Assembly: GCF_000189295.2 (NCBI RefSeq)
Contig: NC_016803.1
Location: 2,490,001 to 2,522,000, forward strand
DNA length: 32,000 nt
DNA from: Pseudodesulfovibrio mercurii
GTDB taxonomy: Bacteria; Desulfobacterota; Desulfovibrionia; Desulfovibrionales; Desulfovibrionaceae
Direction of reading: 5' to 3'
Below, one piece after another: positions 1,019 to 24,572 of this stretch (position 1 is its first letter; each line of letters starts with the position of its first letter). A program made the translations under genes and the position numbers. A model generated the notes under the pieces. It saw nothing but the letters and a program-made list of their open reading frames with translations, was not told the DNA's origin and did not search any database.

Positions 1019-1026
1019 GAGCTTCC

Positions 1027-1721
<695 letters not shown>

Positions 1722-1725
<4 letters not shown>

Positions 1726-2888
1726 CCCGCGAACGCATCCTCAAGAACGCCCGCATCGTCCTGCGCGACGAGATCATGACCGGCGCGGTCCGGCTGGCGG
1801 ACGGGGTCATCACGTCCATCGACCCCGGCACGTGCAACGTGACCAACGCCGAGGACATGGGCAACGACTACCTCCTGCCCGGCTTCGTGGAGCTGCACAC
1901 CGACAACCTGGAGCAGGAGTTGGAGCCCCGGCCGGGCGTGTTCTGGCCCGATCCCCTGGCCGCGGTCCTGGCCCACGACAACACCATGGCGGGCGCGGGC
2001 ATCACCACGGTCCTCGACGCGGTGTCGCTCGGCGAATACCACGACGGACCCAAGCGCGCGCAGATGATGGACCTGTCCCTCAAGGCCCTGCGGCGGGCCC
2101 GGGCCACGGGCATCCTGCGGGCGGACCACCGGCTGCACCTGCGCTGCGAATTTTCCGACCCCAAGGTCCTGGACATGCTCCGGCCGCACATAGACGACCC
2201 GGTGCTCATGCTCGTCTCGCTCATGGACCACACGCCGGGCCAGCGCCAGTTCACGGACACGGACAAGTACCGGACATACTACAAGAAAGGCTGGAGCGAC
2301 GAGGAGTTCGCCGAGATCGCCCGGCGTCTGCGGGCCACCCAGGCGGCCTGCGCCGCGAGCAACCGACAGGCCATCGTGGACCTGTGCCGCGCGCGGACCA
2401 TCCCCATGGCCAGCCATGACGACACCCTGCCCGAGCACGTGGCCCAGGCCGTGGCCGAGGGCATGGCCATCGCCGAGTTCCCGACCACGCGCACGGCCGC
2501 CCGGCTGGCCCGCGAACACGGCATCCGTATCGTCATGGGCGGCCCCAACCTGGTCCGGGGCGCGTCCCACTCGGGCAACGTCTCGGCCCGCGAACTGGCC
2601 GAGGCCGGGCTCCTGGACATCATCTCCTCGGACTACGTACCCGGCAGCCTGGTGGCCGGGGCCTTCGCCCTGCACCGCCAGACCGGCCTGTCCCTGCCCG
2701 ACGCCGTGGCCCGGATCAGCGCCAACCCGGCCGACGCCGTGGGTCTGACCGACCGGGGGCGCATCGCCTGCGGCCTGCGCGCGGACCTGGTCCGGGTGCG
2801 CGAGATCGAGGGCGTGCCCGCCGTGTTACGGACGTGGTCGGTCGGATGTTCGGGGAAGCTCGAAATCACAACAAAAAACGCGGCCTGA
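1722..2888 (+). CDS. phnM: PhnM, alpha-D-ribose 1-methylphosphonate 5-triphosphate diphosphatase (amidohydrolase fold)
   Basis: ATG 1722 overlaps the phnL stop (ATGA). ELHTDNLE metal-binding motif, MASHDD and SSDYVP motifs, ~388 aa, position after phnL. The ORF-track start at 1140 is an artefactual upstream extension. Confidence 0.85.
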
Positions 2889-2912
2889 TTGTTACGGCGG
2901 CAAGCGACGATT

Positions 2913-2936
2913 CCGTCAAACCGTCACCCGGTCACC
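2913..2936. promoter_or_regulatory. Three tandem 8-bp units (CCGTCAAA CCGTCACC CGGTCACC) in the phnM-phnC spacer; possible regulator binding site
   Basis: Read directly from the sequence. Located ~110 bp upstream of the phnC ATG. Function not established. Confidence 0.25.
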
Positions 2937-3043
2937 ATACCCCCGTTGCAGGGACCGTGTAGACCCTTCACGGTGAGGGAAGCCGTCGTCTCCGGACCGG
3001 GCCTTCCCCGAAAACACCCAAAAGATCGAGTCGGGAGGCTTCC

Positions 3044-3865
3044 ATGAAATCCATCGACATCCGCAAGCGGCAGCAGCGCGAGGCCATCCAGGCCAAGGGG
3101 CTGAGCAAGGTCTACCCCAACGGCACCGTGGCCCTCAGGGACGTGTCCGTGACCGTCAACGCGGGCGACTTCTGCGTCGTCATCGGGCTGTCCGGGGCCG
3201 GAAAATCCACGCTGCTGCGCTGCATGAACCGGCTCATCCGGCCCACCCAGGGGTCCATCGCCCTGTTCGGCGAGGACGTCACCCGAGTCAACGGCGGGCA
3301 GCTTCGCCAGGTGCGCCGCCGCGTGGGCATGATCTTCCAGCAGTTCAACCTGGTGCGCCGCCTGACCGTGCTCGACAACGTCCTGGTCGGCCGCCTGCGC
3401 TTCAACGCCCACCCGGTCAAGCGCTGCCTGTCCATGTTCCGCCAGTTCCCGAAGGACGAGCGGGAGTTCGCCTTCGACTGCCTGCAACAGGTGGGCATCG
3501 GGGACCTGGCCTTCCGCCGGGCCGACGCTCTGTCCGGCGGCCAGCAGCAGCGCGTGGCCATCGCACGCGCCCTGGCCCAGGAGCCCGAGGTCTTCCTGGC
3601 CGACGAGCCCATCGCCAGCCTGGACCCGCGCAGCTCCGAGACGGTCATGCGGATCCTGGCCAGGATCCACGAGGACAAGGGCATCCCGGTGCTCGTGAAC
3701 CTGCACCACATCGACTTCGCCCAGCGCTACGGCAAGCGCATCCTGGGCATGTCCAAGGGCGAACTGATCTTCGACGGCACGGCCCGCGACCTGGACGCCG
3801 AGACCGTGTCCCGCATCTACGGCGACAAGGCGGAGGAGGCCCTGGAAGAGCTTTCGGCCGCCTGA
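3044..3865 (+). CDS. phnC: Phosphonate ABC transporter ATP-binding protein PhnC
   Basis: GGGAGG RBS at 3034-3039. Walker [10 protein letters not shown], signature [15 protein letters not shown], Walker [12 protein letters not shown]. Followed by phnD and phnE. Confidence 0.9.
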
Positions 3866-3939
3866 TCCATAACGGCAGCGAACCGGCCGCCGATCGGCAA
3901 GTACTGCATCAACCTCAACGACTCACAGGAGATTTCCCC

Positions 3940-4824
3940 ATGCTCTCGAAACTGTCCAAAGTGCTCATGATGGCGGCCCTGGTCCTGACCGTGGCCCTGC
4001 CCGGCCTGGCCAACGCCGGCCCCTCGGAATGGCCCACCACCCTGAAGCTCGGCTTCATCCCCACCGAAGGCGCGGCCGACTCCGCCAAACGGGCCAAGCC
4101 CATCGCCGCCCAGCTGGAAAAGGACCTCGGCGTCAAGGTCGAGATCTTCACCGCCTCCGACTACAACGGCATCCTGACCGCCATGGCCAACAAGCACATC
4201 GACCTGGCCTACTACGGCCCCAAGAGCTACGTGGAGGCCACCGAGAAGGCCAACGCCGAAGCCATCGTCATGGAGCTGAACAAGGACGGCCAGCCCGGCT
4301 ATACCGGCATCATCATCACCAGGAAGGATTCCGGCATCACCGACATGGACAAGGCCAAGGGCAAGACCTTCGCCTTCACCGATCCCAACTCCACCTCCGG
4401 CTACCTGGTGCCCAACGTCATCTTCGCCCGCGACATGAAGATCGACCCCGAGAAGTACTTCGCCGAAGTGCGCTTCTCCGGCTCCCACGGCGCGTCCATC
4501 CTGGCCGTCAAGAACGGCTCCATCCAGGTGGCGGCCACCAACAACATCGACATGGACCGCATGATCGAGAAGGGCGCCGCCTCCCTGGACGACTTCAACA
4601 TCATCAAGCGTTCCGACATGATCCCCGGCGCGCCCATCGCCGTGCGCAAGGACCTGCCCGAGAGCCTGAAGTGCGCCATCGCCGGTTCCCTGCTCAAGAT
4701 CAACGATGATCCCGAGGCCCTGGAAATCCTCCAGAACGGCGGCTACCGCCACACCTCGGACAAGGACTACGACATGGTCCGCTACCTCAAGCGCCTCAAG
4801 GCCGAACTGGCCAAGAAGAAGTAA
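3940..4824 (+). CDS. phnD: Phosphonate ABC transporter substrate-binding protein PhnD
   Basis: AGGAG RBS. N-terminal signal peptide (MMAALVLTVALPGLANA). LKLGFIPTE ... FTDPNSTSGYLVP motifs typical of PhnD-family binding proteins. Confidence 0.9.
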   Translation: MLSKLSKVLMMAALVLTVALPGLANAGPSEWPTTLKLGFIPTEGAADSAKRAKPIAAQLEKDLGVKVEIFTASDYNGILTAMANKHIDLAYYGPKSYVEATEKANAEAIVMELNKDGQPGYTGIIITRKDSGITDMDKAKGKTFAFTDPNSTSGYLVPNVIFARDMKIDPEKYFAEVRFSGSHGASILAVKNGSIQVAATNNIDMDRMIEKGAASLDDFNIIKRSDMIPGAPIAVRKDLPESLKCAIAGSLLKINDDPEALEILQNGGYRHTSDKDYDMVRYLKRLKAELAKKK

Positions 4825-4826
4825 CG

Positions 4827-5927
4827 ATGACCGATCTGACACTCGATCAGGTCACCCCCAGGCGGAGCTTCCCGCAGAAGCTCGCCCTGGGGGGCCTGGT
4901 GACCATCATCCTGGCCGTGCTCGTGGCCTCGTACATCTCCACGGACATCGACCCGTTCAAGCTGTACGCCAAGCGCCAGAACGCCTTCGAATACCTGTTC
5001 GGCAGACAACTCAACGACGCCGACAAACAGGCGGCCCTGGACCAGGCCAAACGGCTGCCCGCCATCATCGCCTTCGAGGAGTCCTACCAGGCGGTCAAGG
5101 CGGAATACACGGCCACCGGCAAGACGCTCGACCCCGTGGCCATGCAGCGCGAGGCCCAGAAACGGGCCGACGCCCACATCAAGGCCATGAGCCCGGCGGA
5201 CCGCGAGCGTATCGTCCGGAGCGAATACGACCGCATCGCGGACGAGAAGTCCGGTGGCTACTTCCCGCCCGAAACGGCCTGGCCGCACCTCCTGGAATAC
5301 TCCAAGGCGCTCATCGAGACCGTGGCCATCGCCATCTGGGGCACGCTCATCGCCTTCATCGCGGCCATCCCCATGGCCATGTTCGCGGCCAGCAACACCC
5401 TGGAACTGATGGTCCAGGGCGACGGAATCTGGCAGCGCGCACTGCGCTGGTTCGGCCAGTTCGCGGCCCGGCGCGTGCTCGACTTCTGCCGCGGCTTCAA
5501 CGAATTCGTCATGGCCCTCATCTTCGTGGCCGTCATCGGGCTCGGCCCCTACGCGGGCGTCCTGGCCCTGGCCATCCACACCTTCGGCATCCTGGGCAAG
5601 GTCTTCTCCGAGGCCATCGAACAGATCGAACCCGGCCAGGTGGAGGCCGTCACCGCCTCGGGCGCGGGCCCGGCCCAGATTATGGCCTTCTCCGTCATCC
5701 CGCAGGTCATGCCGCTCATCGTCAGCTATACCCTGCTGCGCTTCGAATCCAACGTCCGCTCCGCCACCATCCTCGGCTTCGTGGGCGCGGGCGGCATCGG
5801 CTTCCTCATGTTCGACAAGATCAACGGCTACCTCTACCGCGAAGTCTGCACCATGATGATCATGGTCATCATCTCCGTCACCCTCATCGACTACCTCTGC
5901 GGCATCCTGCGCCGAAGGTTCGTGTAG
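4827..5927 (+). CDS. phnE: Phosphonate ABC transporter permease PhnE (with a long N-terminal extension)
   Basis: ATG lies 2 nt after the phnD stop. Multi-TM C-terminal half with an EAIEQIEPGQVEAVTASGA EAA-loop motif. A ~140-aa charged region follows the first TM. Confidence 0.85.
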   Translation: MTDLTLDQVTPRRSFPQKLALGGLVTIILAVLVASYISTDIDPFKLYAKRQNAFEYLFGRQLNDADKQAALDQAKRLPAIIAFEESYQAVKAEYTATGKTLDPVAMQREAQKRADAHIKAMSPADRERIVRSEYDRIADEKSGGYFPPETAWPHLLEYSKALIETVAIAIWGTLIAFIAAIPMAMFAASNTLELMVQGDGIWQRALRWFGQFAARRVLDFCRGFNEFVMALIFVAVIGLGPYAGVLALAIHTFGILGKVFSEAIEQIEPGQVEAVTASGAGPAQIMAFSVIPQVMPLIVSYTLLRFESNVRSATILGFVGAGGIGFLMFDKINGYLYREVCTMMIMVIISVTLIDYLCGILRRRFV

Positions 5928-7160: not shown

Positions 7161-8477
7161 ATGATCGAGCATATGTTGCGCGCCGCCCGAGGGGCGGCAT
7201 GGCTATTGTTGGCCGGTCTGGTCCTGGCCCTGGGGGCGTGCGTGAAGAGCGGCCCCGGCATGCGGGCGGACGCGGTGGAGACGCCGGACCTGTCCGTGAC
7301 CTTCCTGCCGCAGAAGGGCGAGTTCATCTCGGCCTACGGCGCGCCGCTCTCCCTGGGCGCGGTCAAGGCCATGGCCGAGGGGTGCGACTACGTCCTCATC
7401 GGCGAGGGGCACCGCAACCCGGTGGACCACCGGGTGCAGCAGGAGCTGCTGGAGGCCCTCTCGGACAACGGCGACGGGCTGTCCCTGGGCCTGGAGATGG
7501 TCGGCGCGGACAGGCGGCAGGAGCTGGACGACTTCTGCGAAGGCCGGGTGACCCTGGAGGAGCTGCCCGGCGAGCTGGATTGGAAGGAGAACTGGGGCTA
7601 TGATTTCGGGCTGTTCCGCGACCATTTCGCCATCGCCAAGCGCAACGGCGTGCCCGTGGCCGGGCTGAACGTGCCGTCCGGGGTGGTCCGCAAGATCATG
7701 AAGGACGGACTCGACGGGCTGAGCGACGAGGAGAAGGCGTGGCTGCCCGGGGAGATCGTGCCGCCCGCCACGGACCAGCGCGCCTTCCTGGACGCGGTTA
7801 TGGCCATGCACAAGGGCAAGGACGCCGGGGACGAGAAGGAGCGCGAGCGGTTCTACCTGGTCCAGTCCATCTGGGATTCCAAGATGGCCGAGGAGGCCGT
7901 GCGGCTGCGCAAGCAGTATGACTGGCCCGTGCTGGTGGTGGCCGGGTCCGGGCACGTGGAATACGGCTGGGGCATCGCCAAGCGCATCCGCTGGTTCGAC
8001 CCGGCGGCGCGCATCCTGACCATCGTGCCGTGGCGCGGCGGTCCGTTCGACTCCGAGGCCGGGGACGTGTTCTTCTATGCGCCGGAAACCTACCGTTCAC
8101 GCATGGGCATGGTCCTGTCCGGCCAGGCGGACGGCATCCTGGTGGAATCCGTGTCCAGGGGCTCGCGCGCGGACCGGGCCGGGCTGCGGCCTGGCGACAT
8201 GCTCATCGAGGCCTCGGGCGTTCCGCTCCTGGGGCTGTTCAGCCTGCACGTGGCCGGGACCACGGCGCACGACGCGGACGAGCCGCTGATCTTCACGGTC
8301 CGGCGCGGCGGCGATATCTTTGACGCGGACCTGGGCAAGCTCGGCACCACCCGGCCCAAGGCCAAGGCCGCGCCCAAGGTCGCGGTCGAACCCATGACGG
8401 AATCCAAGGGAGAGTCGGGGGCGCAGGCCCAGCCTGAACCCGCGGCCGCCGAGACGCCGAAAACGGGGGGCAAATAG
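7161..8477 (+). CDS. ChaN-like (Tiki/haem-binding-uptake superfamily) lipoprotein with C-terminal PDZ domain
   Basis: Lipobox LALGAC. YVLIGEGHRNPVDH ... VVAGSGHVEYGWGI motifs resemble the ChaN family. PDZ-like GILVESVSRGSRADRAGLRPGDMLIEASG. Low-complexity K/A/P/E tail. Confidence 0.7.
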   Translation: MIEHMLRAARGAAWLLLAGLVLALGACVKSGPGMRADAVETPDLSVTFLPQKGEFISAYGAPLSLGAVKAMAEGCDYVLIGEGHRNPVDHRVQQELLEALSDNGDGLSLGLEMVGADRRQELDDFCEGRVTLEELPGELDWKENWGYDFGLFRDHFAIAKRNGVPVAGLNVPSGVVRKIMKDGLDGLSDEEKAWLPGEIVPPATDQRAFLDAVMAMHKGKDAGDEKERERFYLVQSIWDSKMAEEAVRLRKQYDWPVLVVAGSGHVEYGWGIAKRIRWFDPAARILTIVPWRGGPFDSEAGDVFFYAPETYRSRMGMVLSGQADGILVESVSRGSRADRAGLRPGDMLIEASGVPLLGLFSLHVAGTTAHDADEPLIFTVRRGGDIFDADLGKLGTTRPKAKAAPKVAVEPMTESKGESGAQAQPEPAAAETPKTGGK

Positions 8478-8963
8478 ATGCGCCGCGCCTGCCTGACCCT
8501 GCTGTGGGTGCTCGCGCTGGCCGCGCCCCTGGCCGCCGGCACCACCGACGACCTGTCCGAACTGTTTCCCGCTTCCGTTGGGCCGCTTGAGCGCGTGGGG
8601 CTCGTCACCGGGGACGAGGCCCAGACCGAGGTGGACAAACTGCACGGCAAGGCGCTCCGGGCCGAGGCCAGCGCCATCGCCCACTATGCGGAGCAGGGCG
8701 GCAGGCCCGCCGAGGCGTGGGTCTCGCGGGTCGCGTCCGAGGCCGAGGCGCGCCGCCAGACCGGGCTCATGGTCCACAAGATGTTCGAAAACCCCCGGTC
8801 GCCCTTCAGCCACCCGTCCAGGGTGGACCACAACGGCGTGGCCGTGTACCGCTTCACCGGCATGGGCCGGGCGCACCTCATCTGGTACGCGGGCGACCTG
8901 GTCTGGTGGGTCAGCGCGGACCCGGATCGGGAGCGGGACTTCCTCGACGCCCTGTGCCGCTAG
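8478..8963 (+). CDS. Secreted hypothetical protein
   Basis: ATG directly abuts the upstream TAG. Signal peptide MRRACLTLLWVLALAAPLAAG. Coding-like G/C3 bias. No family recognised. Confidence 0.55.
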   Translation: MRRACLTLLWVLALAAPLAAGTTDDLSELFPASVGPLERVGLVTGDEAQTEVDKLHGKALRAEASAIAHYAEQGGRPAEAWVSRVASEAEARRQTGLMVHKMFENPRSPFSHPSRVDHNGVAVYRFTGMGRAHLIWYAGDLVWWVSADPDRERDFLDALCR

Positions 8964-15343: not shown

Positions 15344-15376
15344 ACTGAACACGTTCATTTACTGAACATGTTCATT
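15344..15376. promoter_or_regulatory. Two tandem palindromic operator-like sites (ACTGAACACGTTCATT and ACTGAACATGTTCATT, 17-bp period)
   Basis: TGAACACGTTCA at 15346-15357 (5-bp arms, 2-nt centre) and the perfect 12-bp palindrome TGAACATGTTCA at 15363-15374. They start 18 nt upstream of the TetR ATG at 15326. Confidence 0.6.
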
Positions 15377-15527
15377 AAACTCCTTTGGCCGAACCGTCAA
15401 GGGGGCGGGACGGCCAAGGGCGGCGCGTCTCGATAATCGTGCGGGGGATGGGGCGAATGGCCCGCTCCGGGGCGACGCACAGTCGGCTATTTATTTGATA
15501 ACCGACCGTATTAATGAATAAAATGAA

Positions 15528-16748
15528 TCAGGACCTGAGGACGTCCAGAATCTCGATATTGGCGGCCTGCCAGGCGGGGTAGGCCCCGGCGAGCACGCCC
15601 AGAAGGCAGGACCCGGCCAGGGTCACGGCCAGGCTGACCGGGTCGATGATGATCGGCAGCTTGGCCACGGTGCAGCCCACCAGGACCAGGGCCACGGTCA
15701 CGGCCACGCCCAGGCCGCCGCCCACCGCGGCCATGAGCCCGGACTCGAACAGGAACTGGCGGACGATGTCCCGCCTGCGGCCGCCCACGGCCCGGCGCAC
15801 GCCGATCTCCACCCGCCTGGAGCGAACCACCAGGATCATGATGGACAGGATGCCCAGGCCGCCCACGGCAAAGGAGATGGTCGAGGTGATCCCGCCCAGC
15901 GTGGTCATCAGGTCCAGGGCCTGGCGTTGCAGCTTGATGGCGTCGGCCGCGGACATGGAGCTGAAGTCGTCCTTTTCGCCGGGGTCGATGCGGTGCCGTT
16001 CGCGCATGATCGCGTTCACCGAGTCGTTGACCTGGGTCAGGCCCGCGTCCTTGGCCAGACGCATGTATACACCGGAAACCCAGCGCTGGTTGCTGGCCCG
16101 GCGCATGTAGGTGGTCAGCGGCATGAGCAGGATCTCGTCCTGGTCCGTGCCGGACACGTCGCGGCCCTTCTCCTCCATGACCCCGAGGACCCGGAAGCTG
16201 GCCCGGAACATGTAGATGTCACGGCCCACGGCCTGCTCGGGGCGGCCGAACAGCCGCTGGGCGATCTTGCGCCCGAGCACGCAGACCTTGGCCCGGTCGT
16301 CCACGTCGCTCCAGGTGAAGAACCGGCCCACGTCCGGGCGGAAGCTGCGGATTTCCTGGTAGTTGGGCCAGCAGGCCAGAATCTGGGCGTTGACCGCGTT
16401 GCCGTTGCCGCGCACGGCCATGGTCGCGGTGACGAAGGGCGTGCCGTCCAGGACCGAGGGCACGGAGTCGATCAGGGCCTGGGCGTCGGCCAGGACGAAG
16501 TTGCGCGAGTTGCCGTTGATGCGCACGCCCCCGCCCCGGGTGAAGCGGACCGATCCGGCCAGGACCGCATACAGGTTCGGGCCGAGCTTTTCGGTCTCCA
16601 TCTCGGCCTGTCGGACCATGATCTTGGACACGTGCTGCACCCCGGTGAAGGCCAGGGCGCCCAGGAAAACCCCGAGCATGGCCAGCACGGCGCGGAGCTT
16701 GTGGGCCGACAGGGAGGACACGGCGATGGTCAGGTTCAGGGGCAGCAT
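15528..16748 (-). CDS. FtsX/MacB-type ABC transporter permease (no adjacent ATPase)
   Basis: GGAGG RBS 5 nt upstream of ATG 16748. One N-terminal TM, a ~240-aa periplasmic domain and three C-terminal TMs. Conserved RRVEIGVRRAVGGRRRDIVRQFLFES helix typical of MacB/LolCE-type permeases. Confidence 0.8.
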   Translation of the reverse strand: MLPLNLTIAVSSLSAHKLRAVLAMLGVFLGALAFTGVQHVSKIMVRQAEMETEKLGPNLYAVLAGSVRFTRGGGVRINGNSRNFVLADAQALIDSVPSVLDGTPFVTATMAVRGNGNAVNAQILACWPNYQEIRSFRPDVGRFFTWSDVDDRAKVCVLGRKIAQRLFGRPEQAVGRDIYMFRASFRVLGVMEEKGRDVSGTDQDEILLMPLTTYMRRASNQRWVSGVYMRLAKDAGLTQVNDSVNAIMRERHRIDPGEKDDFSSMSAADAIKLQRQALDLMTTLGGITSTISFAVGGLGILSIMILVVRSRRVEIGVRRAVGGRRRDIVRQFLFESGLMAAVGGGLGVAVTVALVLVGCTVAKLPIIIDPVSLAVTLAGSCLLGVLAGAYPAWQAANIEILDVLRS

Positions 16749-16758
16749 GGGACCTCCG

Positions 16759-17430
16759 CTACTCGTACCGGGCCCGGTTCCAGGCCGTGTTGCCGTTGAA
16801 GACGTGCTGCCACAGCCGCTCGAAGGCGTGGCCGGTATTGCCCGCGTCCAGCGGGTCGTCCTCGATCAGGCGCAGGCAGAATTCGTAGAAGGATTTCGGC
16901 CGGGTGCGGATGCGCTCGCCGGTCACGCAGAAGTTGCCCGTGGGCGCGCGGCAGATGATCTCGTCCGGCATGGCGACGCCGAAGAGGCGTTCGAACAGCT
17001 CGCCCACCGGGATGTCCCGGCCCCAACCGGCCCAGCGGCCCTCGTTCTCGGGCTTGCGCAGGTCGTGCGGACGGCCCAGGCGGTCGCTCTTCAGCTTGAA
17101 CCAGGCCAGCCCCCGGAAGGGCACGCCCCTATCCGCAACGTCCTCCAAGGTCTTCCGCAAGGTCTCCACCGTGGTCCGGCCGCGATCATCCAGGTGATCG
17201 AAGGGGTCGCCCTGGAGAAAGACGTTCAGGGGGGCCAGGGCGTCGTACTCGTTGACGATGTGCGTGAAATAGGTGTGGGCCTCGCGCCCGATGTTCGGCA
17301 GTTTGCGGGCATCCGGGCCGAGATCGCCGCCCTTGTCGTAGACCGTGTGGGGGCACCCCAGCCGGCTTGCCCAGGACACGTCCTCGCGGTACCTGGCGAT
17401 GATCACCCGGATGTCGTCACGCACGTTCAC
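16759..17430 (-). CDS. DUF3431-like protein (function unknown)
   Basis: GTG 17430 overlaps the larC stop (GTGA). IIARYREDVSW ... LPNIGREAHTYFTHIVNEYDAL ... FLQGDPFDH resembles the NKGREA..YLT.I...YD core of DUF3431. The ORF-track 471-aa version is an out-of-frame shadow over larC. Confidence 0.55.
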   Translation of the reverse strand: MNVRDDIRVIIARYREDVSWASRLGCPHTVYDKGGDLGPDARKLPNIGREAHTYFTHIVNEYDALAPLNVFLQGDPFDHLDDRGRTTVETLRKTLEDVADRGVPFRGLAWFKLKSDRLGRPHDLRKPENEGRWAGWGRDIPVGELFERLFGVAMPDEIICRAPTGNFCVTGERIRTRPKSFYEFCLRLIEDDPLDAGNTGHAFERLWQHVFNGNTAWNRARYE

Positions 17431-18194
17431 GCTCCACGCGGGGGTTCGGGTTCCGCAACCTTCTCCAAGACCATGGCCCGGACATAGGTGGGCTGCTCGT
17501 CCGAGGACCGCCCGCCCGAGCCGTAGCCCACCCCCAAAAGACGTCCCAGGGGCAGGGGACCGAAGTCGTCCGCAACAATCCGCAGGATGGCCAGGCCCGT
17601 GGGGGTGGCCCGCTCCATGGCGCAGTCGGAGCCGAAGGTGGTCAGCCCCCTGGCCAGTTCCGCGCAAGCCGGTGCCGGGACAGGCATTTTGCCGTGGGCG
17701 CACTGCACGAACCCGGACCCCAGGTCCACCGGGCTGCAGACCACGCGTTCGGCCTCCAGGGCGTCCAGCAGGAGCATGGTTCCGCAAATATCCGCAAGGG
17801 TGTCCACAGCGCCGATCTCGTGGAAGTGGACCTGCTCCAGGTCCACGCCGTGGACCTTGGCCTCGGCCTGGCCCAGAAGGCGCAGGGCCCGGACAGAGCG
17901 TTCCCCGGCCCGACCGGACAGGCCGCTTCCCTCGATAATCCGGCAGAGGTCGGTGTAGTGGCGCAGGGGCTGCTCCCGGGTCTGGAGCACGTCCACGTGC
18001 GTGGTCCGGATGCCCGCGATGCGCTTTTCCGTCCATTTGAGCCCGAAGCCGTCCAGGCCGAGCCGGGCCAGCTCCCGCTCCAGGAAGGCGAACCCCAGGC
18101 CGGGGCCGCGCCACTCCTCCAGGGCGTGGCTCAGGGCGGCGAGGAGCATGTCCCCGCTCACGCCCGTGGAACAATCGAGATATACCGTGTGCAT
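17427..18194 (-). CDS. larC: LarC-like nickel insertion protein, N-terminal (LarC1/DUF111) domain only
   Basis: MHTVYLDCSTGVSGDMLLAAL start and HFHEIGAVDTLADICG motif of DUF111/LarC. The ORF ends after 255 aa at the usual inter-domain boundary. Confidence 0.8.
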   Translation of the reverse strand: MHTVYLDCSTGVSGDMLLAALSHALEEWRGPGLGFAFLERELARLGLDGFGLKWTEKRIAGIRTTHVDVLQTREQPLRHYTDLCRIIEGSGLSGRAGERSVRALRLLGQAEAKVHGVDLEQVHFHEIGAVDTLADICGTMLLLDALEAERVVCSPVDLGSGFVQCAHGKMPVPAPACAELARGLTTFGSDCAMERATPTGLAILRIVADDFGPLPLGRLLGVGYGSGGRSSDEQPTYVRAMVLEKVAEPEPPRGA

Positions 18195-18200
18195 GGGTTC

Positions 18201-18953
18201 CTATCCGTCCCGCCCGCCGACGGCCAGCATGTTGATCTTGTGGGCCAGGTAGCCCGCGCCGAAGCCGTTGTCGATGTTCACGACCCCGATGCCCGGCGCG
18301 CAGGAATTCATCATGGTCAGCAGGGCGGCCAGCCCCTGAAAACTGGCCCCGTAGCCCACGCTGGTGGGCACGGCCAGGATGGGCGGTAGGGCCAGGCCGC
18401 CGATGACCGAGGGCAGCGCCCCCTCCATGCCCGCCACGGCGATGATCACCGAGGCGTCGTTGAGATCGTCCATGACCGAAAAGAGGCGGTGGATGCCCGC
18501 CACCCCGCAGTCGAAATGCCGATCCACGCGGCTACCCAGGAACTCGGCCGTGCCCGCGGCCTCCTCGGCCACGTCCAGGTCCGAGGTGCCCGCCGAGACG
18601 ACCACCACCTTGCCCGCCGGGTCCGCCACCGGCTCCCCGATGGACAGCAGCCCGGACACCGGGTCGAAGCGGGCGTCCGCAACGGCCCGCACGGCCTCGA
18701 AATGGGCGTGATCGGCCCTGGTCCCCAGGACCCGTCCGTTGTGGCGGTTGAGGTGATCAAAGATCGAGGCCACCTGATCGGGCGTCTTGCCAGCGCAGTA
18801 GACCACCTCGGGCCCGCCGGTGCGCAGCTCGCGCAGCTGGTCGATCTTGGCGCAGCCGGTTTCGATGAAGGACTGCCGGAGCAATTCCTTCTTCAGCTTG
18901 TCCCGCGAAATCTGTCCGGCTTCGAAATCGTCGAGCAGACGGTCCAGGCTCAT
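18201..18953 (-). CDS. larB: LarB, pyridinium-3,5-biscarboxylic acid mononucleotide synthase (PurE-like)
   Basis: VVVVSAGTSDLDVAEEAAGTAEFLG and AVAGMEGALPSVIGGL PurE/AIR-carboxylase-like motifs. ATG 18953 overlaps the larE stop (ATGA) and has GGGAG upstream. An alternative in-frame ATG lies at 18977. Confidence 0.85.
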   Translation of the reverse strand: MSLDRLLDDFEAGQISRDKLKKELLRQSFIETGCAKIDQLRELRTGGPEVVYCAGKTPDQVASIFDHLNRHNGRVLGTRADHAHFEAVRAVADARFDPVSGLLSIGEPVADPAGKVVVVSAGTSDLDVAEEAAGTAEFLGSRVDRHFDCGVAGIHRLFSVMDDLNDASVIIAVAGMEGALPSVIGGLALPPILAVPTSVGYGASFQGLAALLTMMNSCAPGIGVVNIDNGFGAGYLAHKINMLAVGGRDG

Positions 18954-19711
18954 CCGGCCCACTCCCTGAAGGTGCATGATTCCAGCCCGATCCGATTCGC
19001 CAGCGCCACGATTTTATCACGGTTTTCCTGTATGATTTCTGCGTACTGCGGAAGGTACTCCACGGTTGCCATCAGATTATCAGGCCGGACGCGGACCGTG
19101 TGCACGCCGATGGTGTGCAGGTAGGATTCCAGGGCGTTCACCCGGCCGAGGTCGTCGGCATTCAGGGGCACGCCCGTGGGGATGCGCGTGGCCAGGCAGC
19201 TCTCGGACGGGGCCTCCCAGTTGGACAGCCCCGCCTCGCGCGCCAGCCCCCGGATCTCGGCCTTGCCCAACCCCGCCGCCAGCAGGACCGAATAGACGTG
19301 GAACTCCTGCAGGGCCCGCAGGCCCGGCCGGTTGGGGTCGTCGTCAGCGTTGGTCCCGTCCAGGAGCAGGCAACCCGCCCCGAAGGCGTCCCGCATGGTG
19401 CGGAGAATCAGGCACTTGCAGTGATAGCAGCGGTCGTCCAGGTTGCGCCGCACCTCGGGCACGACCAGGGCCGAAATCTGGATGACCCGGTGCTCGATGC
19501 CGATGTGGGCGGCCACGCGTTCGGCGCGCTTCAGGTCCCGGTCCGGGGTCAGTTCGCTGACCACGGTGCAGGCCATGGCGCGCGGGCCGAGGGCGAGGTG
19601 CGCCGCGGCGGCCACCAGGCTGCTGTCCACCCCGCCGGACAGGGCCGTGACCGCGCAGCCGACGTCGCCCGCGCGCGCGGCGATGAGGGAGGCAAGATGA
19701 TCGAGGCTCAT
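18950..19711 (-). CDS. larE: LarE, ATP-dependent sulfur transferase (PP-loop ATP pyrophosphatase)
   Basis: PP-loop SGGVDSS. LDGTNADD ... RPGLRAL. SESCLATRIP corresponds to the catalytic Cys loop of LarE. There is an additional CYHCKC motif. Confidence 0.85.
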   Translation of the reverse strand: MSLDHLASLIAARAGDVGCAVTALSGGVDSSLVAAAAHLALGPRAMACTVVSELTPDRDLKRAERVAAHIGIEHRVIQISALVVPEVRRNLDDRCYHCKCLILRTMRDAFGAGCLLLDGTNADDDPNRPGLRALQEFHVYSVLLAAGLGKAEIRGLAREAGLSNWEAPSESCLATRIPTGVPLNADDLGRVNALESYLHTIGVHTVRVRPDNLMATVEYLPQYAEIIQENRDKIVALANRIGLESCTFREWAG

Positions 19712-19742
19712 GAATAAAGCCTAGCCCACCCGAAAGCCCGGT

Positions 19743-21140
19743 TCAACCCCTTTCGGGCTTTTCGCGGCCTATGAGATCGATGCGCCGCCAGGGGCCCTTG
19801 CGGAAACGGGTCATGAAGGTGGAGGCCAGGATGACCACGTAGAGGAGCAGGAACATCCACGGCCCGTGGATGCTGGTGATGCCCAGTCCGTTGAGCACCA
19901 GCAGGGGGATGACCAGGCAGACGATGGAGCCGGTGCCCATGACGAACATGATGAACCGGGTGTCGCCCGCGCCCTTGAGCCCGCCCATGTAGACGATGGC
20001 CAGGGCGTCGAGCAGGGTGAACACGGCGCAGTAGCGCATGAGCACCCCGCCCATGGCCAGGACCGCGTTGAAATCGATGCCGGTCACGTCGCGGGGCCGG
20101 AACAGGTTGAGCAGGAATTCCGGCATGACCCAGAAGACAACGGCCATGACGCCCATGTAGGCCAGGGCGATGTGCAGGACCGAGTGGGTGCAGAAGGCCG
20201 CACGGTCCGGGTTGCCGTCGCCCATGGCCTGGCCAACCATGATGCTGGCCGCCACGTGCAGGCCGATGGTCGGCAGGAAGGCCAGGTTGTAGATGGAGAA
20301 GACCGCGCTTGTGGAGGCCAGTTCCACGGGACCGAAGCGGCCGATGATGAAGACGAAGAACGAAACCGCGAACATGTCCAGGAAGAACTGGACCCCGCCG
20401 GGCAGGCCAAAACGCAGGAACCGGGCGAACAGGGCGTGGTCGAACCGCCAGGCGGACCGGACCCGGAACAGGGCTTCGTTCTTGCGGGTGAAGATCAGCC
20501 GGATGTAGACGATCAGCGGCACGATGAAGCCGATGACCGTGGCCAGGCCCGCACCGGCGATGCCCATCTCCGGGAAGGGCCCGATACCGTTGATCAGACA
20601 GTAATCCAGCGGAATGTTGATGAAGATAGAGCCCAGACTGATGAGCATGACCGGCTTGGTCAGGCCGCGCCCGGCAAAGAAGTTGGACAGGCACATGCCG
20701 AGCAGGCAGGGCAGGCTGCCCACCGTGAGGATCTGGAAATAGACGATCTCGAGACGCCGGATGGACTCGGGGTGGCCGACCAGCCCGAACAGCGGCTCCG
20801 CGAAAAAGGCCAGGGCCGCGAGCAGCAGCCCGGACGGCACGCAGAACCAGAGGCCCACCCACAGGGCGCGGCCCACGTCCGCCGGACGGCACGCGCCCGT
20901 GTACTGGGCGATGAACACGTTGACGTACTCGGACACGCCCATGAAAAAGGACAGGAACAGGAAGGCCATGACGTTGGCCGGCAGGGAGGCGCCCAGGGCC
21001 TCCAGGGAGTAGTTGCCCAGAAATATTCGGTCCGTGAAGGTCATGACCGTGTTGGAGACCATGCTGACGACCAGGGGCAGCCCGATATTGAGGGCCTCCC
21101 GATACCCGCCTTGCGCACGCCAACGTTCCACCAGATACAT
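19743..21140 (-). CDS. MATE-family efflux transporter
   Basis: ATG 21140 preceded by GAGGA (5-nt A spacer). ~465 aa, 12 predicted TMs. N-terminal ...EALNIGLPLVVSMVSNTVMTFTDRIFLG typical of MATE/NorM proteins. The ORF-track start at 21197 is an extension. Confidence 0.85.
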   Translation of the reverse strand: MYLVERWRAQGGYREALNIGLPLVVSMVSNTVMTFTDRIFLGNYSLEALGASLPANVMAFLFLSFFMGVSEYVNVFIAQYTGACRPADVGRALWVGLWFCVPSGLLLAALAFFAEPLFGLVGHPESIRRLEIVYFQILTVGSLPCLLGMCLSNFFAGRGLTKPVMLISLGSIFINIPLDYCLINGIGPFPEMGIAGAGLATVIGFIVPLIVYIRLIFTRKNEALFRVRSAWRFDHALFARFLRFGLPGGVQFFLDMFAVSFFVFIIGRFGPVELASTSAVFSIYNLAFLPTIGLHVAASIMVGQAMGDGNPDRAAFCTHSVLHIALAYMGVMAVVFWVMPEFLLNLFRPRDVTGIDFNAVLAMGGVLMRYCAVFTLLDALAIVYMGGLKGAGDTRFIMFVMGTGSIVCLVIPLLVLNGLGITSIHGPWMFLLLYVVILASTFMTRFRKGPWRRIDLIGREKPERG

Positions 21141-21203
21141 TTTTTTCCTCGTTTGTTGCGGACCGCCCGCGACAGGGCATCGGTCCGGCATTGGCAACCT
21201 ATA

Positions 21204-21220
21204 CCGGCGCGGCGCGCCGG
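21204..21220. promoter_or_regulatory. Perfect 8+1+8 palindrome CCGGCGCG-G-CGCGCCGG in the MATE/marR divergent promoter region
   Basis: Read directly from the sequence. Lies between the MATE ATG (21140) and the MarR ATG (21268). Function unknown. Confidence 0.3.
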
Positions 21221-21267
21221 TAAAGTGGAATCATGCCCCGTTCACATCTTGTCATTTAAAATACAGC

Positions 21268-21825
21268 ATGCTATGGAACATCCGGTACCAACCTGTAATC
21301 CTGGACGAATACGTGGACCAGAAAGCGGAATACCTGTTTTATCCGGCCATGTCCCGATTCCAGCGCCTGTACACCAAGGGGTTGTCCAAGCGGCTGGACC
21401 CGCATGGCGTGAAACCCGGCTACCTGGAGGTGTTCTTCCGCCTCTGGGAAGGGGATGGCATCACCCAGAAGACGCTGCACGAAAGCCTGGACGTGGAACA
21501 GGCCACCCTGTCCAACACCCTCAAGCGGATGGAGCGGGACGGCTTTCTGACCTGCGAACGCAACCCCAGGGACCGGCGGCAGTCCATCATCGTCCTGTCC
21601 GACACGGGCGCGGGGTTGCGCAAACTGGTTCTGGCGGCCATCGACGACCTGCAAAAGGTGGTCAACCACCGGTTGAGCATCAACGACCGCCGCTATTTCC
21701 GACGCATCCTCACCCAGATGAACGACCAGCTCGTCTCGGACCTGGACGACGCCACTCTGGTCCTGCTCGACGAGGTGAACGAGGACGACGGCATGGTCAT
21801 GCTCGTGGACGAAATCAAAAAGTAG
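21268..21825 (+). CDS. MarR-family transcriptional regulator
   Basis: ATG 21268. Winged-HTH ITQKTLHESLDVEQATLSNTLKRMERDGFLTCERNPRDRRQSIIVLSDTG. Divergent from the MATE gene. The ORF-track start at 21013 runs antisense through the MATE gene. Confidence 0.8.
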   Translation: MLWNIRYQPVILDEYVDQKAEYLFYPAMSRFQRLYTKGLSKRLDPHGVKPGYLEVFFRLWEGDGITQKTLHESLDVEQATLSNTLKRMERDGFLTCERNPRDRRQSIIVLSDTGAGLRKLVLAAIDDLQKVVNHRLSINDRRYFRRILTQMNDQLVSDLDDATLVLLDEVNEDDGMVMLVDEIKK

Positions 21826-22250
21826 GCGGAAATTCGAACCGCAACCAACCACAAATACGCTTGCAGACCATATTTCCCCGCCTGACGAGCCTTGCGCACC
21901 GCATTTACCGCCCGGCTCCACACTCCACCGCATGGTTCCCCATAAACCGCTTCTTCGCGTACCCCATTAATTGTCCCCAGCGAATATTCTTTTTTAATCT
22001 ACTGAAACCATAATCTTTTTCGATAACATGTCCACCTGCGGCCATTGACGCGGCGATTTGCCGCATGCTACGCGTGCGGGGCCGGAAGTGACCGGGGAAA
22101 GTCCGATTCGTGGTTTTTTCCCATTATTTTTTCCGGCGGAATCTGCTATGGCTTCCCTAATTAACAACAACGTCCTGTAATTCCTTTTTATAGGTTTCTT
22201 TCTAGAATAACTCTAGACAATATGGGACAACGTTGTACTTTGTTGACAAT

Positions 22251-22271
22251 CTTTGACACCCTATGTCAAAG
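22251..22271. promoter_or_regulatory. Inverted repeat CTTTGACA-cccta-TGTCAAAG spanning the first ATG of the HTH gene, next to a second TTGACA (22243-22248)
   Basis: Perfect 8-bp arms read from the sequence. Candidate autoregulatory operator or -35 region if the real start is ATG 22302. Confidence 0.35.
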
Positions 22272-22553
22272 AATGAACATCATAGGTCGGATTGTGACAT
22301 TATGGACAACGCAAATGCACCCAGGCCGCCGATCCTGCTTACCGTGCGGGAAGTCGCGGACTATTTGCGGGTTCACCAGAGAACGGCCTACCGGTTGATC
22401 ACCAGCGGCGACATCAAGGCCATCAAGATCGGCAGCCAGTGGCGCGTGCCCGAACAGGCCTTGATGGAATTTTTAGAGAGTGGAATGAAGGCGGCGGCCC
22501 CTTCGGGCAAGAGGAAGACCGCGCCGGACCAATTCAAACTCCCTCTGGACTAA
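22263..22553 (+). CDS. Excisionase-family (MerR-like HTH_17) DNA-binding protein
   Basis: LLTVREVADYLRVHQRTAYRLITSGDIKAIKIGSQWRVPEQALMEFL is a typical HTH_17 core. The first 13 codons are AT-rich, so the true start may be ATG 22302 (MDNANAP...). Confidence 0.7.
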   Translation: MSKNEHHRSDCDIMDNANAPRPPILLTVREVADYLRVHQRTAYRLITSGDIKAIKIGSQWRVPEQALMEFLESGMKAAAPSGKRKTAPDQFKLPLD

Positions 22554-22563
22554 GGAGAGCGGC

Positions 22564-22968
22564 ATGTCGAAAAGAACGGTTGGCGGTTATGACGGGGGCG
22601 ACCCGATCCTGAACGTTACCCTGCCCAATGATTTCGGCGAGGACATCGCGGTCACCGGCCAACTCATCGGCGAGGAAATGTACTTCGACGACGGCACCGG
22701 CATGCTGACCATGGAAAAGCTGTACCGTGCCCAGGACGACAAGCTCGTCTACGGCATCATCTCCGCCATCGGACACGCCCGCGAACGCCGCGCCTACCGC
22801 GTGGAAGAGGGCGAGGACAGCTGCATCGTCACCAACGGCAGCCTGAGCCTCGAATTCAACTACGACCAGCTCTTCGAACTCCTGGCCGTGGCCCTGGAAT
22901 CCGAAAAGGAAGCCGCAGGCGCACAGGTCAGCGAACAGGTCCGCCGCAAACTCGCCGTGAACGAATAA
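22564..22968 (+). CDS. Hypothetical acidic protein, 134 aa
   Basis: Strong AAGGAGAG RBS overlapping the upstream stop. Coding-like G/C3 bias. No family recognised. Confidence 0.6.
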   Translation: MSKRTVGGYDGGDPILNVTLPNDFGEDIAVTGQLIGEEMYFDDGTGMLTMEKLYRAQDDKLVYGIISAIGHARERRAYRVEEGEDSCIVTNGSLSLEFNYDQLFELLAVALESEKEAAGAQVSEQVRRKLAVNE

Positions 22969-22980
22969 ATTCGCATAGGA

Positions 22981-23023
22981 AAGGTAATAAAAAAGGGGCC
23001 AATGGCCCCTTTTTTATTACCTT
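22981..23023. terminator. Bidirectional rho-independent terminator (perfect 21-bp arms)
   Basis: AAGGTAATAAAAAAGGGGCCA / TGGCCCCTTTTTTATTACCTT. A GGGGCC/GGCCCC core is flanked by A6/T6 runs on both strands. Confidence 0.8.
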
Positions 23024-23063
23024 TTTACTGCCTACGGCGGCCGGGGCGCTGCTTCGGACCCCG

Positions 23064-23247
23064 CCAGAGAACCTTTTGTAAAAGGTTCTCTGGACTCTCC
23101 AAAACATTTTATCGCCGCTACGCGGGCTCCGTGCAAACTCGGTTATCCTATTTCCCAATACCTCTCTCGAATTTCCCGCCAAGCGGCAGGTCCCGGCGGG
23201 GCTTGTCGCACTCGCGTAGCGCACGAAAAATTCTGGAAGGGAGAAGG
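23064..23247. repeat. MITE-like repeat element, copy 2 (inverted relative to copy 1), with flanking palindrome 23064-23093
   Basis: CCAGAGAACCTTTTGTAAAAGGTTCTCTGG has perfect 14-bp arms. The adjacent ACTCTCCAAAACATTTTATCGCCGCTACGCG (23094-) is mirrored by CGCGTAGCGCACGAAAAATTCTGGAAGGGAGAAGG (-23247). The reverse complement aligns by eye with 5996-6241. Confidence 0.55.
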
Positions 23248-23276
23248 AATGGGAGACCGGGGGCATCATTCTTCCT

Positions 23277-24572
23277 CTACTTGAGATACTCGCGTTGCCC
23301 GGTGGCTTCCATGACGGAGGCCCACCAGTCGGAGTTGATGTTGATGCGGCGGCGTTCGGTGGCCACCAGGTCCAGGGGCAGGTGGACCATGCTCGATTTG
23401 AGCCGGGAGACGACCATGGCGGTCTTGCCGGCCATGGCCGCGTGCACGGCGTTCTGCCCGAGGAATCCGCAGTAGACCCGATCGCCCGCATTGGCCGGGA
23501 CGGATCGAATCAGGTAGCTGGGATCAATGAATTTTATGTTGATCTCAAAATCCTTGGACAGGGCGTATTTCTCGAGTTCGGAGACGATGAGGCCGCAGAT
23601 GTCGCCCAGTTTGGGGTTGCCCGAGGGGTCTCGTTCGAGTTCCCCGCCGAGCAGATCCTGGCCCGCGCCCTCGGCGCAGACGATGATGGAATGCTTGCGT
23701 TCCTTGAGCCGGGTCTCCACGGCCTCGAGCAAGCCGCCCGGTCCGGCCAGGGTGAAGGGCTGTTCCGGGACCAGGAGGAAGTTGACCTCCTGCATGGCCA
23801 GGGTGGCCTGGGCCGCGATGAAGCCCGCTTCCCGGCCCATGAGCTTGACCAGACCCACGCCCATGTCGATGCCGGTGGCCTCCACGTGGGCGCACTGGAT
23901 GACCTCGGCGGCCTTTTCCACGGCCGTGTCGAAACCAAAGGAGCGGGTGATGAAGTTGATGTCGTTGTCGATGGTCTTGGGGATGCCGATGACGGCGATG
24001 TTCCGCTTGCGCTCGGATATCTCGTTGACGATGGACCTGGCCGCGCGCATGGCGCCGTCGCCGCCGATGACGAACAGGATGTTGATGTTCAGCCGCTCCA
24101 GTGAATCGACGATCTCCACCGGGTCCTGAAGCCCGCGCGACGAACCCAGGATGGTCCCGCCGAACTGGTGGATGTGTGAGACGGTCTCCGGGGTGAGTTC
24201 CTTGATGTCGTAGCCGTACTTGGGAATGAAGCCGCGCAGCCCGTTGGTGATGCCGAGCACGTGGCGCACGCCGTAGTGGTAGTGGGCCTCGTGCACGATG
24301 GCCCGGATGACGTCGTTGATGCCCGGGCAGATGCCGCCGCAGGTGACGACGGCGCAGCGCGCCTTGGAGGTGTCGAAATAGACCTGCTCGCGCGGTCCGG
24401 CCTTTTCGAAATCCTTTTGCAGTACGTCGGTGTCCAACTCGGTCAGCTCGCCCGAGGTAAGCATCAGCGTCACCGGAATCGACTCGTCCACGAACCGGGC
24501 GTTCTTCAGCGGCGATTTGATCTTGGCCTTGCCGAGATTCGGTATTTCCGTAACGAAATCCAGGCGTTTCAT
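23277..24572 (-). CDS. pfk: 6-phosphofructokinase (long PFK group; ATP-dependent type suggested by GGDG)
   Basis: TCGGICPGINDVIR, VIGGDGAMRAA and IPKTIDNDI motifs. 431 aa. GGDG rather than GGDD argues for ATP rather than PPi dependence (a rule of thumb, not proof). Confidence 0.85.
   Translation of the reverse strand: MKRLDFVTEIPNLGKAKIKSPLKNARFVDESIPVTLMLTSGELTELDTDVLQKDFEKAGPREQVYFDTSKARCAVVTCGGICPGINDVIRAIVHEAHYHYGVRHVLGITNGLRGFIPKYGYDIKELTPETVSHIHQFGGTILGSSRGLQDPVEIVDSLERLNINILFVIGGDGAMRAARSIVNEISERKRNIAVIGIPKTIDNDINFITRSFGFDTAVEKAAEVIQCAHVEATGIDMGVGLVKLMGREAGFIAAQATLAMQEVNFLLVPEQPFTLAGPGGLLEAVETRLKERKHSIIVCAEGAGQDLLGGELERDPSGNPKLGDICGLIVSELEKYALSKDFEINIKFIDPSYLIRSVPANAGDRVYCGFLGQNAVHAAMAGKTAMVVSRLKSSMVHLPLDLVATERRRININSDWWASVMEATGQREYLK

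Follow-up and report, generated by a model that had tools for sequence, protein, structure and literature searches.

A lar gene cluster with a LarC1-only LarC and a conserved DUF3431 neighbour in Pseudodesulfovibrio mercurii ND132

The nickel-pincer cofactor belongs to the very small group of organometallic cofactors, and current work holds activation with cytidine monophosphate (CMP) by LarC2 to be obligatory for formation of its Ni-C bond. We analysed a 32-kb stretch of the genome of Pseudodesulfovibrio mercurii ND132 (formerly Desulfovibrio sp. ND132), a mercury-methylating sulfate reducer; this whole stretch is called the window and is the scope of all window searches reported here. It carries the cofactor genes larE, larB and larC in an array of six minus-strand genes, in which larC encodes a LarC1-only protein and is followed by a gene for a DUF3431 protein. 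The missing LarC2 and the conserved coupling of larC1 to the DUF3431 gene are the unusual parts of the cluster. On balance we favour the view that the genes form an operon for a cofactor that is used inside the cell, by an enzyme encoded elsewhere, and that is made with a variant nickel-insertion step. The Lar system itself is known; new here is the lineage-specific layout, a clade-wide LarC1-only pathway with a locked neighbour of predicted GT-A fold. A previous reading of the DNA from its letters alone (the sequence-only reading) under-weighted both features and named larC1 and larC2 only among its proposed checks and grounds for refutation.

Gene content of the cluster

Family scans bore out the identities that the sequence-only reading had given to the seven genes. 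A MarR gene lies on the plus strand, and MATE, larE, larB, larC, DUF3431 and MacB-type permease genes are tightly spaced on the minus strand:

21268-21825, plus strand: MarR-family regulator, divergent from the operon (Pfam MarR, 45 bits)
19743-21140, minus strand: NorM-type MATE efflux transporter, open reading frame (ORF) open to 21197 (Pfam MatE, 150 bits; TIGR00797, 207 bits)
18950-19711, minus strand: LarE, ATP-dependent sulfur insertase (TIGR00268, 209 bits versus a cut-off of 150)
18201-18953, minus strand: LarB, pyridinium carboxylase/hydrolase, alternative start at 18977 (NF033503, 272 bits versus a cut-off of 175)
17427-18194, minus strand: LarC1-only nickel-insertion protein of 255 amino acids (TIGR00299 for LarC1, 188 bits versus a cut-off of 90)
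16759-17430, minus strand: DUF3431 protein, deposited start GTG 17424 (PF11913, 71 bits versus a cut-off of 25)
15528-16748, minus strand: MacB-type ABC permease with MacB_PCD and FtsX domains (Pfam, 119 and 58 bits)

Deposited P. mercurii proteins (DND132_2258 and its neighbour) match the DUF3431 and LarC products with 100% identity. LarB, LarE and LarC1 all scored above the equivalog cut-offs of NCBIfam, and by these three proteins the cluster can be assigned to the Lar biosynthesis system; LarC2, which was looked for as a further mark of that system, was not found in the window. Like the lar operon of L. plantarum (larA, larB, larC1/C2, larE and a nickel transporter), the cluster encodes homologous LarB, LarE and LarC1 with their catalytic residues. 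In contrast to that operon, the window lacks larA, LarC2 and a nickel transporter, its LarE has the [4Fe-4S] CXXC-C pattern and not that of the sacrificial single-Cys type, and MATE, DUF3431 and MacB-type permease genes are added.

LarC without LarC2

The larC product covers only positions 1-235 of the 375 positions of the Pfam Ni_insertion model, and aligns to residues 21-249 of the 414-residue LarC chain of M. thermoacetica (PDB 12BI). LarC2 is reported to bind cytidine triphosphate (CTP) and to CMPylate the substrate before LarC1 inserts nickel (PMC13510736). The residues important by mutagenesis in M. thermoacetica LarC1, which include a histidine patch and an acidic pocket (PMC13510736), are all present in P. 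mercurii LarC, with equivalents of D15, R71, H72, E104, H108, H116, H118, E119, D124, D128, H160 and E187. On the other hand, the LarC2 hexamer core of the full-length M. thermoacetica cyclometallase, which provides CTP binding and CMPylation, has no counterpart in the P. mercurii gene, in the window or in 80 related loci. The latter are a sample of genome loci encoding DUF3431 relatives, onto which the genes of the window were mapped. As judged from its sequence, LarC is the LarC1 domain alone.

Searches by tblastn with three LarC2 domains, taken from the nearest full-length LarCs, found nothing in the window or in the 80 loci, the best E value being 0.066. The same queries detected LarC2 in every LarC ORF of 350 or more amino acids, which numbered 70 among 75 complete metagenome LarC ORFs. 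This background consists of diverse LarC ORFs among the matches listed by a metagenome scan, which had originally been aimed at relatives of the LarC1-only protein P0237. Four or five of the 75 background LarCs among the matches listed are independently LarC1-only. All of the 120 nearest LarC homologues have lengths of 234 to 323 amino acids, LarC measures 243 to 321 amino acids in each of the 32 related loci with linked lar genes, and the nearest true full-length LarCs stand at no more than 50% identity (among representatives at 50% identity). Loss of LarC2 thus appears as a property of the whole clade.

LarC2 may still be encoded elsewhere in the P. mercurii genome. A homologue search with the LarC2 domain gave eight weak matches and was too insensitive to judge a stand-alone LarC2 in Pseudodesulfovibrio. 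The two halves of LarC can be encoded apart, because one contig (L088, 4423-5825) carries a stand-alone LarC2-like gene for 190 amino acids, followed by larE, with no LarC1 nearby. In P0241 (412 amino acids), a LarC1 relative at 55% identity, an acidic low-complexity tail of about 170 amino acids takes the place of LarC2. Independent LarC1-only genes are found in L139, in an archaeal-type context with archease and diphthamide synthase genes, and in L149, where larE-larB-larC1 is followed by an ORF resembling ADP-ribosylglycohydrolase. No convergent signature was found in LarC1 among the LarC1-only proteins.

LarE and LarB

LarE carries SGGVDS, C95-x-x-C98 and C172. The corresponding motifs of T. 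maritima LarE are SGGXDS and CXXC-C with Cys92, Cys95 and Cys172 (PMC9283937), and the P. mercurii protein can be placed by these motifs in the catalytic [4Fe-4S] CXXC-C class and not in the sacrificial single-Cys class.

LarB aligns end to end with LarB of L. plantarum (7MJ0; E = 1e-64) and keeps the equivalents of Glu180 and Cys221 within AGMEGAL and NSCA. At the position of L. plantarum Asp192-Lys193 it has Leu-Pro (LarB residue 197, counted from ATG 18977). The Asp192 column holds Asp in 10 of 11 LarBs encoded beside a full-length LarC, is non-acidic in 30 of 32 LarBs of Desulfovibrionaceae and also in the D. aminophilus type, and is Ser in L149, the sole independent LarC1-only locus with a LarB. 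It is the only LarB column that is at least 90% conserved beside full-length LarC and yet altered in the LarC1-only clade. The exception among the full-length cases is L122, where LarC is complete yet LarB has no Asp at this position. The column was followed in loci L001-L071, L084, L090 and L149.

The larC1-DUF3431 pair in related loci

Lar genes are linked to DUF3431 in 32 of the 80 loci, and in every one of these 32 larC1 stands directly upstream of DUF3431, with a distance from stop to start of -17 to +64 bp. The lar-linked loci comprise two deep clades, one of Pseudodesulfovibrio and Salidesulfovibrio and one of Humidesulfovibrio and Desulfocurvus, together with single lineages. The pair is intact despite insertion of thiC between larB and larC1 (L010 and L013), and also where the locus has neither larE nor larB (L009). 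Recurrence in 32 related loci and in D. aminophilus-type contigs shows that the arrangement is more than chance.

The sequence-only reading had proposed that gene neighbourhoods be compared for conserved larC1-DUF3431-FtsX or MATE-larE adjacency. Conservation was complete for larC1-DUF3431 and only partial for the exporters: of 25 loci that could be evaluated, 15 have MATE immediately upstream of larE, and among the 30 lar-linked loci evaluable for the permease it is encoded at most 300 bp downstream of DUF3431 in 17. The D. aminophilus-type contigs have larE-larB-larC1-DUF3431-permease without MarR or MATE. MarR is found at this position in L001-L015, and the D. aminophilus-type and Humidesulfovibrio-type loci lack it. 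One locus (L018) has MATE-DUF3431-permease without any lar genes, and the contig that carries P0237 has larE-larB-larC1 without exporters or DUF3431. The permease has no adjoining gene for an ABC ATPase, either here or in the D. aminophilus-type loci.

DUF3431 itself is not bound to lar genes, as 48 of the 80 loci have no lar gene within 10 kb of it. The lar-less DUF3431 genes lie among housekeeping genes, between uvrB-kch (kch encoding a K+ channel) and ligA-dapB-nadE, or beside TetR-HlyD-AcrB, and in L018, L025, L032 and L037 DUF3431 adjoins efflux genes even without lar. Comparison of the loci thus indicates that MarR, MATE and the permease are neighbours in a conserved efflux-rich block and are not needed for the lar genes.

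Glycosylation genes (YdjC, GT2, TPR-GT2 and MptE-like) recur around the lar-DUF3431 block in relatives, with the pair of YdjC and GT2 recurring. Loci with glycosylation genes are L008, L011-L014, L018, L027, L040, L084 and L090, as well as L021, L028, L038 and L071. MATE and larE are separated by TPR-GT2, GT1-like and MptE-like genes in the Humidesulfovibrio clade.

The DUF3431 protein

The AlphaFold model of the DUF3431 protein (pLDDT 88, pTM 0.88) has as its best matches in a viral library a phage GT-A-type protein and a Pithovirus fusion protein with TM values of 0.71-0.72. Plant- and bacterial-type glycosyltransferases come next, and matches to glycosyltransferases span TM 0.43-0.72. The best matches in the PDB are CMP-Kdo synthetases and are weak (TM 0.32-0.40). 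Because GT-A proteins dominate both fold searches, the protein is predicted to have the GT-A (nucleotide-diphospho-sugar transferase) fold. After strand 4, where GT-A enzymes carry DxD, it has a QG(D)PF(D)H segment, in which Q73, P76 and H79 are invariant; the Asp residues of this GDPFDH segment are not conserved in distant homologues. The predicted fold is that of GT-A transferases such as TOD1/MUCI70, RgpF and PLOD-GT as well as KdsB and IspD. Unlike them, however, DUF3431 has no profile similarity to KdsB or to any solved structure: the sequence profile gave no match among solved structures, and hhalign returned a probability of 0.3% for KdsB and of 1% for LarC2. Homology of DUF3431 to LarC2 was rejected on the latter value and on the predicted fold, which is GT-A and not ferredoxin-like.

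The conserved core of DUF3431 consists of E16, K33, N46, R49, E50, H52, H57, Q73, H79, R177, H201, E204 and R205, and is common to lar-linked, unlinked and Verrucomicrobial homologues. Comparison of the lar-linked proteins with the others gave no specific residues of note, only G34/S and F146/Y. Since the same residues are conserved in unlinked homologues, the lar-linked proteins are not a specialised subfamily.

Distant homologues are found in glycosyltransferase contexts or beside a gene resembling flavin amine oxidases. The latter type is seen in a Kuenenia metagenome-assembled genome, where DUF3431 adjoins such a gene (L078, 7221-10104), and in a Pithovirus protein (BFVD A0A481Z5S5), in which DUF3431 is fused to a flavin amine-oxidase-like domain. 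This recurring association may point to the real substrate of the family. DUF3431 is spread across bacteria, fungi and giant viruses. No link between DUF3431 and Lar was found in the literature, the papers that mention DUF3431 being fungal; the conserved larC1-DUF3431 pair is a first functional lead for the family.

LarA, nickel import and cofactor users

The sequence-only reading had reported neither a LarA nor a nickel-uptake gene in the 32 kb, and our searches agree with it. LarA had no Pfam match among about 27 ORFs of the window, and tblastn with L. plantarum LarA (identical to PDB 5HUQ) was negative in the window and in the 80 related loci. A LarA-like match in L019 was discarded; it spans 40 residues (E = 0.057) of a Cys-rich protein of 367 amino acids that is not LarA-like along its length. 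Neither AKR (PF00248) nor ornithine cyclodeaminase was present among the window ORFs scanned. There is no nickel importer in the window. The ABC genes at 38-5927 (plus strand) were considered as a nickel importer and rejected, because they belong to phosphonate C-P lyase/uptake genes encoding PhnK, PhnM, PhnC, PhnD and PhnE, all above NCBIfam equivalog cut-offs.

About 15% of genomes have larB, larC and larE without larA (PMC11796402), and 2,108 of 11,067 LarC neighbourhoods contain LarB and LarE but no LarA within 20 ORFs (PMC13524815). Proven users of the cofactor other than LarA are the AKR-type NphT and an ornithine cyclodeaminase (PMC13524815). Absence of larA near lar genes is therefore not in itself surprising, as this is an already documented class. 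The LarA-less clusters that serve these enzymes (NphT and the NPAD-dependent cyclodeaminase) likewise group larB, larE and larC (PMC13524815). P. mercurii differs from them in having no AKR or cyclodeaminase among the scanned ORFs and in its LarC without LarC2, and the coupled DUF3431 of predicted GT-A fold has no mention in the parts of those studies available to us.

Function of the cluster

According to the explanation that we favour, LarB would carboxylate nicotinic acid adenine dinucleotide, a catalytic LarE of the [4Fe-4S] type would turn both carboxylates into thiocarboxylates and the LarC1-only LarC would form the Ni-C bond. The product would act inside the cell as cofactor of an enzyme whose gene lies beyond the window; candidates are a LarA homologue and the newer scaffolds other than LarA. 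DUF3431 would be co-expressed with larC1. Because LarC2, the normal CMP-activator, is absent from the whole clade, the nickel step would have to run differently, either on a dinucleotide intermediate that needs no CTP or with an activating partner supplied in trans. Gene identities, kept catalytic residues, loss of the domain and the synteny pattern are shown by the data, and we infer intracellular use and a nickel insertion that copes without LarC2. The sequence-only reading had offered a cofactor for a distant LarA homologue as one of two possibilities. A distant user is consistent with all that was seen and is the default of the literature; to take LarA as the centre of lar clusters is an outdated premise, because larA-less genomes are common and non-LarA users are known. 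Several points weigh against the explanation. That the user enzyme is encoded elsewhere is an assumption, and none was found in the window. CTP-dependent CMPylation by LarC2 is held to be required (PMC13510736), and the literature found reports no LarC1-only protein as active. Furthermore, the MATE-larE adjacency kept in two deep clades and the larC1-DUF3431 coupling in all lar-linked loci hint at more than a chance neighbourhood.

A pincer cofactor of the NPAD-type dinucleotide is a rather unlikely alternative in its specific form, and it refines the favoured explanation without excluding it. LarB would keep the adenosine monophosphate (AMP) moiety and LarE and LarC1 would act on the adenine dinucleotide, so that CTP is unneeded and LarC2 could be lost. 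L. plantarum LarC is reported to accept the AMP-bearing analogue P2TAD (cited in PMC13510736 as ref. 17), and an adenine dinucleotide form of the cofactor is known from an ornithine cyclodeaminase that depends on NPAD (cited in PMC13524815, ref. 22). If the Asp192 position of LarB serves AMP release, its change beside LarC1-only genes (30 of the 32 Desulfovibrionaceae and L149) would mean that the dinucleotide is retained and LarC2 dispensable; the sample behind this suggested link is small. The correlation comes from only two independent lineages, L122 breaks it with a full-length LarC, there is no ornithine cyclodeaminase gene in the window, and LarC1 shows no convergent change. Still less probable is that LarC1 and DUF3431 work as a pair. 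DUF3431 could replace LarC2 as activator: it would nucleotidylate the phosphate of the bis-thiocarboxylate mononucleotide and thereby allow LarC1 to insert nickel. IspD and KdsB, which share the fold class, carry out chemistry of this kind. Alternatively, DUF3431 might tailor or use the pincer nucleotide, e.g. as an NDP-sugar-like ligand, which would give a modified cofactor. Such a partnership is attractive because the fold class suits nucleotidyl transfer to a sugar phosphate, the chemistry of LarC2. LarC2, the usual cytidylyl-transfer domain, is missing, the DUF3431 model has a nucleotide-diphospho-sugar transferase fold with cytidylyltransferases as top PDB matches, and the close spacing of the pair holds in each of the 32 lar-linked loci, whose clades share only about 50% identity, through the thiC insertion and in the absence of larE and larB from the locus. 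Yet the fold fits glycosyltransferases better than cytidylyltransferases, the hhalign values for LarC2 and KdsB are negligible, lar-linked DUF3431 proteins have no residues of their own, most DUF3431 loci (48 of 80) are without lar genes nearby, and the independent LarC1-only lineages L139, L149 and P0237 have no DUF3431 close by. Slightly more doubtful again, in our view, is that the Desulfovibrionaceae rebuilt the pathway: LarC2 was lost, and LarC1 with the translationally coupled DUF3431 would be a two-protein cyclometallase or would make a nucleotide- or sugar-bearing pincer cofactor. LarB may at the same time have ceased to remove AMP. If true, it would amount to a second, undescribed route to the Ni-C bond and to the first function for DUF3431.

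The other possibility raised by the sequence-only reading was a secreted chelator, i.e. a thiocarboxylated pyridinium nucleotide, or a derivative tailored by DUF3431, exported by MATE and/or the MacB-type transporter in the manner of pyridine-2,6-bis(thiocarboxylate) (PDTC). We consider this highly improbable. Two exporter genes do bracket the lar genes in one apparent operon under MarR, MATE adjoins larE in 15 loci from two deep clades, and LarE of the catalytic type (PMC9283937) would not limit flux as a sacrificial protein does. However, each module occurs without the others in relatives, so that exporters can be separated from lar genes and the proposal loses its main support; the surrounding synteny is that of a block rich in efflux genes, with TetR, HlyD and AcrB following. 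A metallated intracellular cofactor is favoured over an apo-chelator, because the nickel-insertion domain has all tested catalytic residues, and an intact nickel-insertion site would be pointless for an apo-chelator. In addition, the product would be a phosphorylated nucleotide and the window has no phosphatase, nucleosidase, uptake receptor or re-import system, while the permease has no ATPase partner here. The pdt clusters of Pseudomonas contain different biosynthetic enzymes, plus an outer-membrane receptor and an importer. Common to PDTC and the present system is only the chemical idea of a metal-binding pyridine bis-thiocarboxylate; in P. mercurii receptor and importer are missing from the window, the ring would be a ribotide and a nickel-insertion enzyme is present. 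Among features expected of a secreted chelator, receptor and importer were thus not found in the window, and the exporters are missing from many orthologous lar loci. Scarcely any weight, marginally less even than to export, is given to the view that the lar genes are a decaying remnant, in which loss of LarC2 stopped nickel insertion and the genes persist by operon inertia. A domain held to be essential is missing and no user enzyme is visible in the window, but full-length domains and every catalytic residue checked are kept in all three proteins across clades only 50% (LarC1) to about 60% (LarB) identical, and reading frames are intact in 32 loci. Intact frames and kept catalytic residues indicate purifying selection on the lar genes.

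Taken together, selection maintains LarB, LarE and an intact LarC1 throughout a bacterial family in which no LarC2 is in sight, and about 5% of the LarCs in the metagenome sample, among the matches listed, are also LarC1-only. If LarC1-only proteins are active, either the accepted mechanism is incomplete or the dinucleotide cofactor is far wider than the single case of the cyclodeaminase. P. mercurii ND132 is genetically tractable and the question is therefore directly testable.

Organisation of the transcription unit

The tight packing and the junction distances described in the sequence-only reading were read directly from the DNA and stand, with start ambiguities at larB (18953 or 18977) and at DUF3431 (17430 or 17424). 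The MATE stop is separated from the larE ATG by 31 bp. The genes larE and larB overlap in ATGA with the larB start at 18953, Met9 of its longest ORF, and by 28 bp with the start at ATG 18977; 6 bp lie between the larB stop and the larC ATG. The larC TGA overlaps a GTG at 17430, and the deposited DUF3431 protein (221 amino acids, P0001) begins at the GTG after it, 17424, where the GGAG is better placed (7 nt spacing) than at 17430. Depending on the DUF3431 start, larC and DUF3431 overlap or stand 2 bp apart. The DUF3431 TAG is followed by CGGAGGTCCC and then by the permease ATG. All six minus-strand genes are supported by codon-position GC. The signals around them are:

15478-15510, minus strand: hairpin with a 13-bp stem, 18 nt past the permease stop (z-score -2.7; 1 of 200 shuffles folds equally well; no U tract)
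19733-19761, minus strand: hairpin over the MATE stop codon (-26.8 kcal/mol for the surrounding 71 nt; z-score -1.8; no U tract)
21198-21225, minus strand: promoter-like element of the operon upstream of MATE, CTTTAC-16 nt-TATAGG

No terminator-like site was found at any junction of the six-gene array; the hairpin over the MATE stop is marginal and was not called as a terminator. The transcription unit probably ends at the hairpin past the permease. Two 12-nt palindromes, TGAACATGTTCA and TGAACGTGTTCA, at 15346-15374 lie 20-48 bp upstream of the TetR start and are likely a TetR operator, marking a separate unit that leads into DUF2867-TetR-HlyD-AcrB. Because of the terminator-free junctions, the hairpin after the permease and the separate TetR operator-like palindromes, the six genes look like one unit and we infer that they are co-transcribed. 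Two Logan contigs of about 1.3 kb (L083 and L087; runs SRR3926152 and SRR3926153, same strain) span larB/larC1/DUF3431 and larC1/DUF3431/permease, and would show co-transcription if their runs are RNA-seq.

The hexamer pair upstream of MATE would serve as the promoter. Its hexamers and the 16-nt spacing are kept in L001, L002 and L003, with varying spacer sequence. MATE probably starts at ATG 21140, since TTG 21197 abuts the -10-like hexamer. An inverted-repeat search showed that in this species the spacer is a palindrome, TACCGGCGCG-g-CGCGCCGGTA. It lies within the region for which the sequence-only reading had proposed an electrophoretic mobility shift assay with MarR.

Other features of the window

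A gene for a ChaN-like haem-binding (Cofac_haem_bdg) protein with a PDZ domain is located at 7161-8963 on the plus strand, together with a following ORF of 161 amino acids with a strong coding signal and no family match. The GC content falls to 0.55-0.58 at 21000-23500, compared with about 0.68 elsewhere; this part covers MarR, an HTH_17 gene and two ORFs without a family. The HTH_17 (excisionase-like) gene at 22263-22553 is syntenic in relatives.

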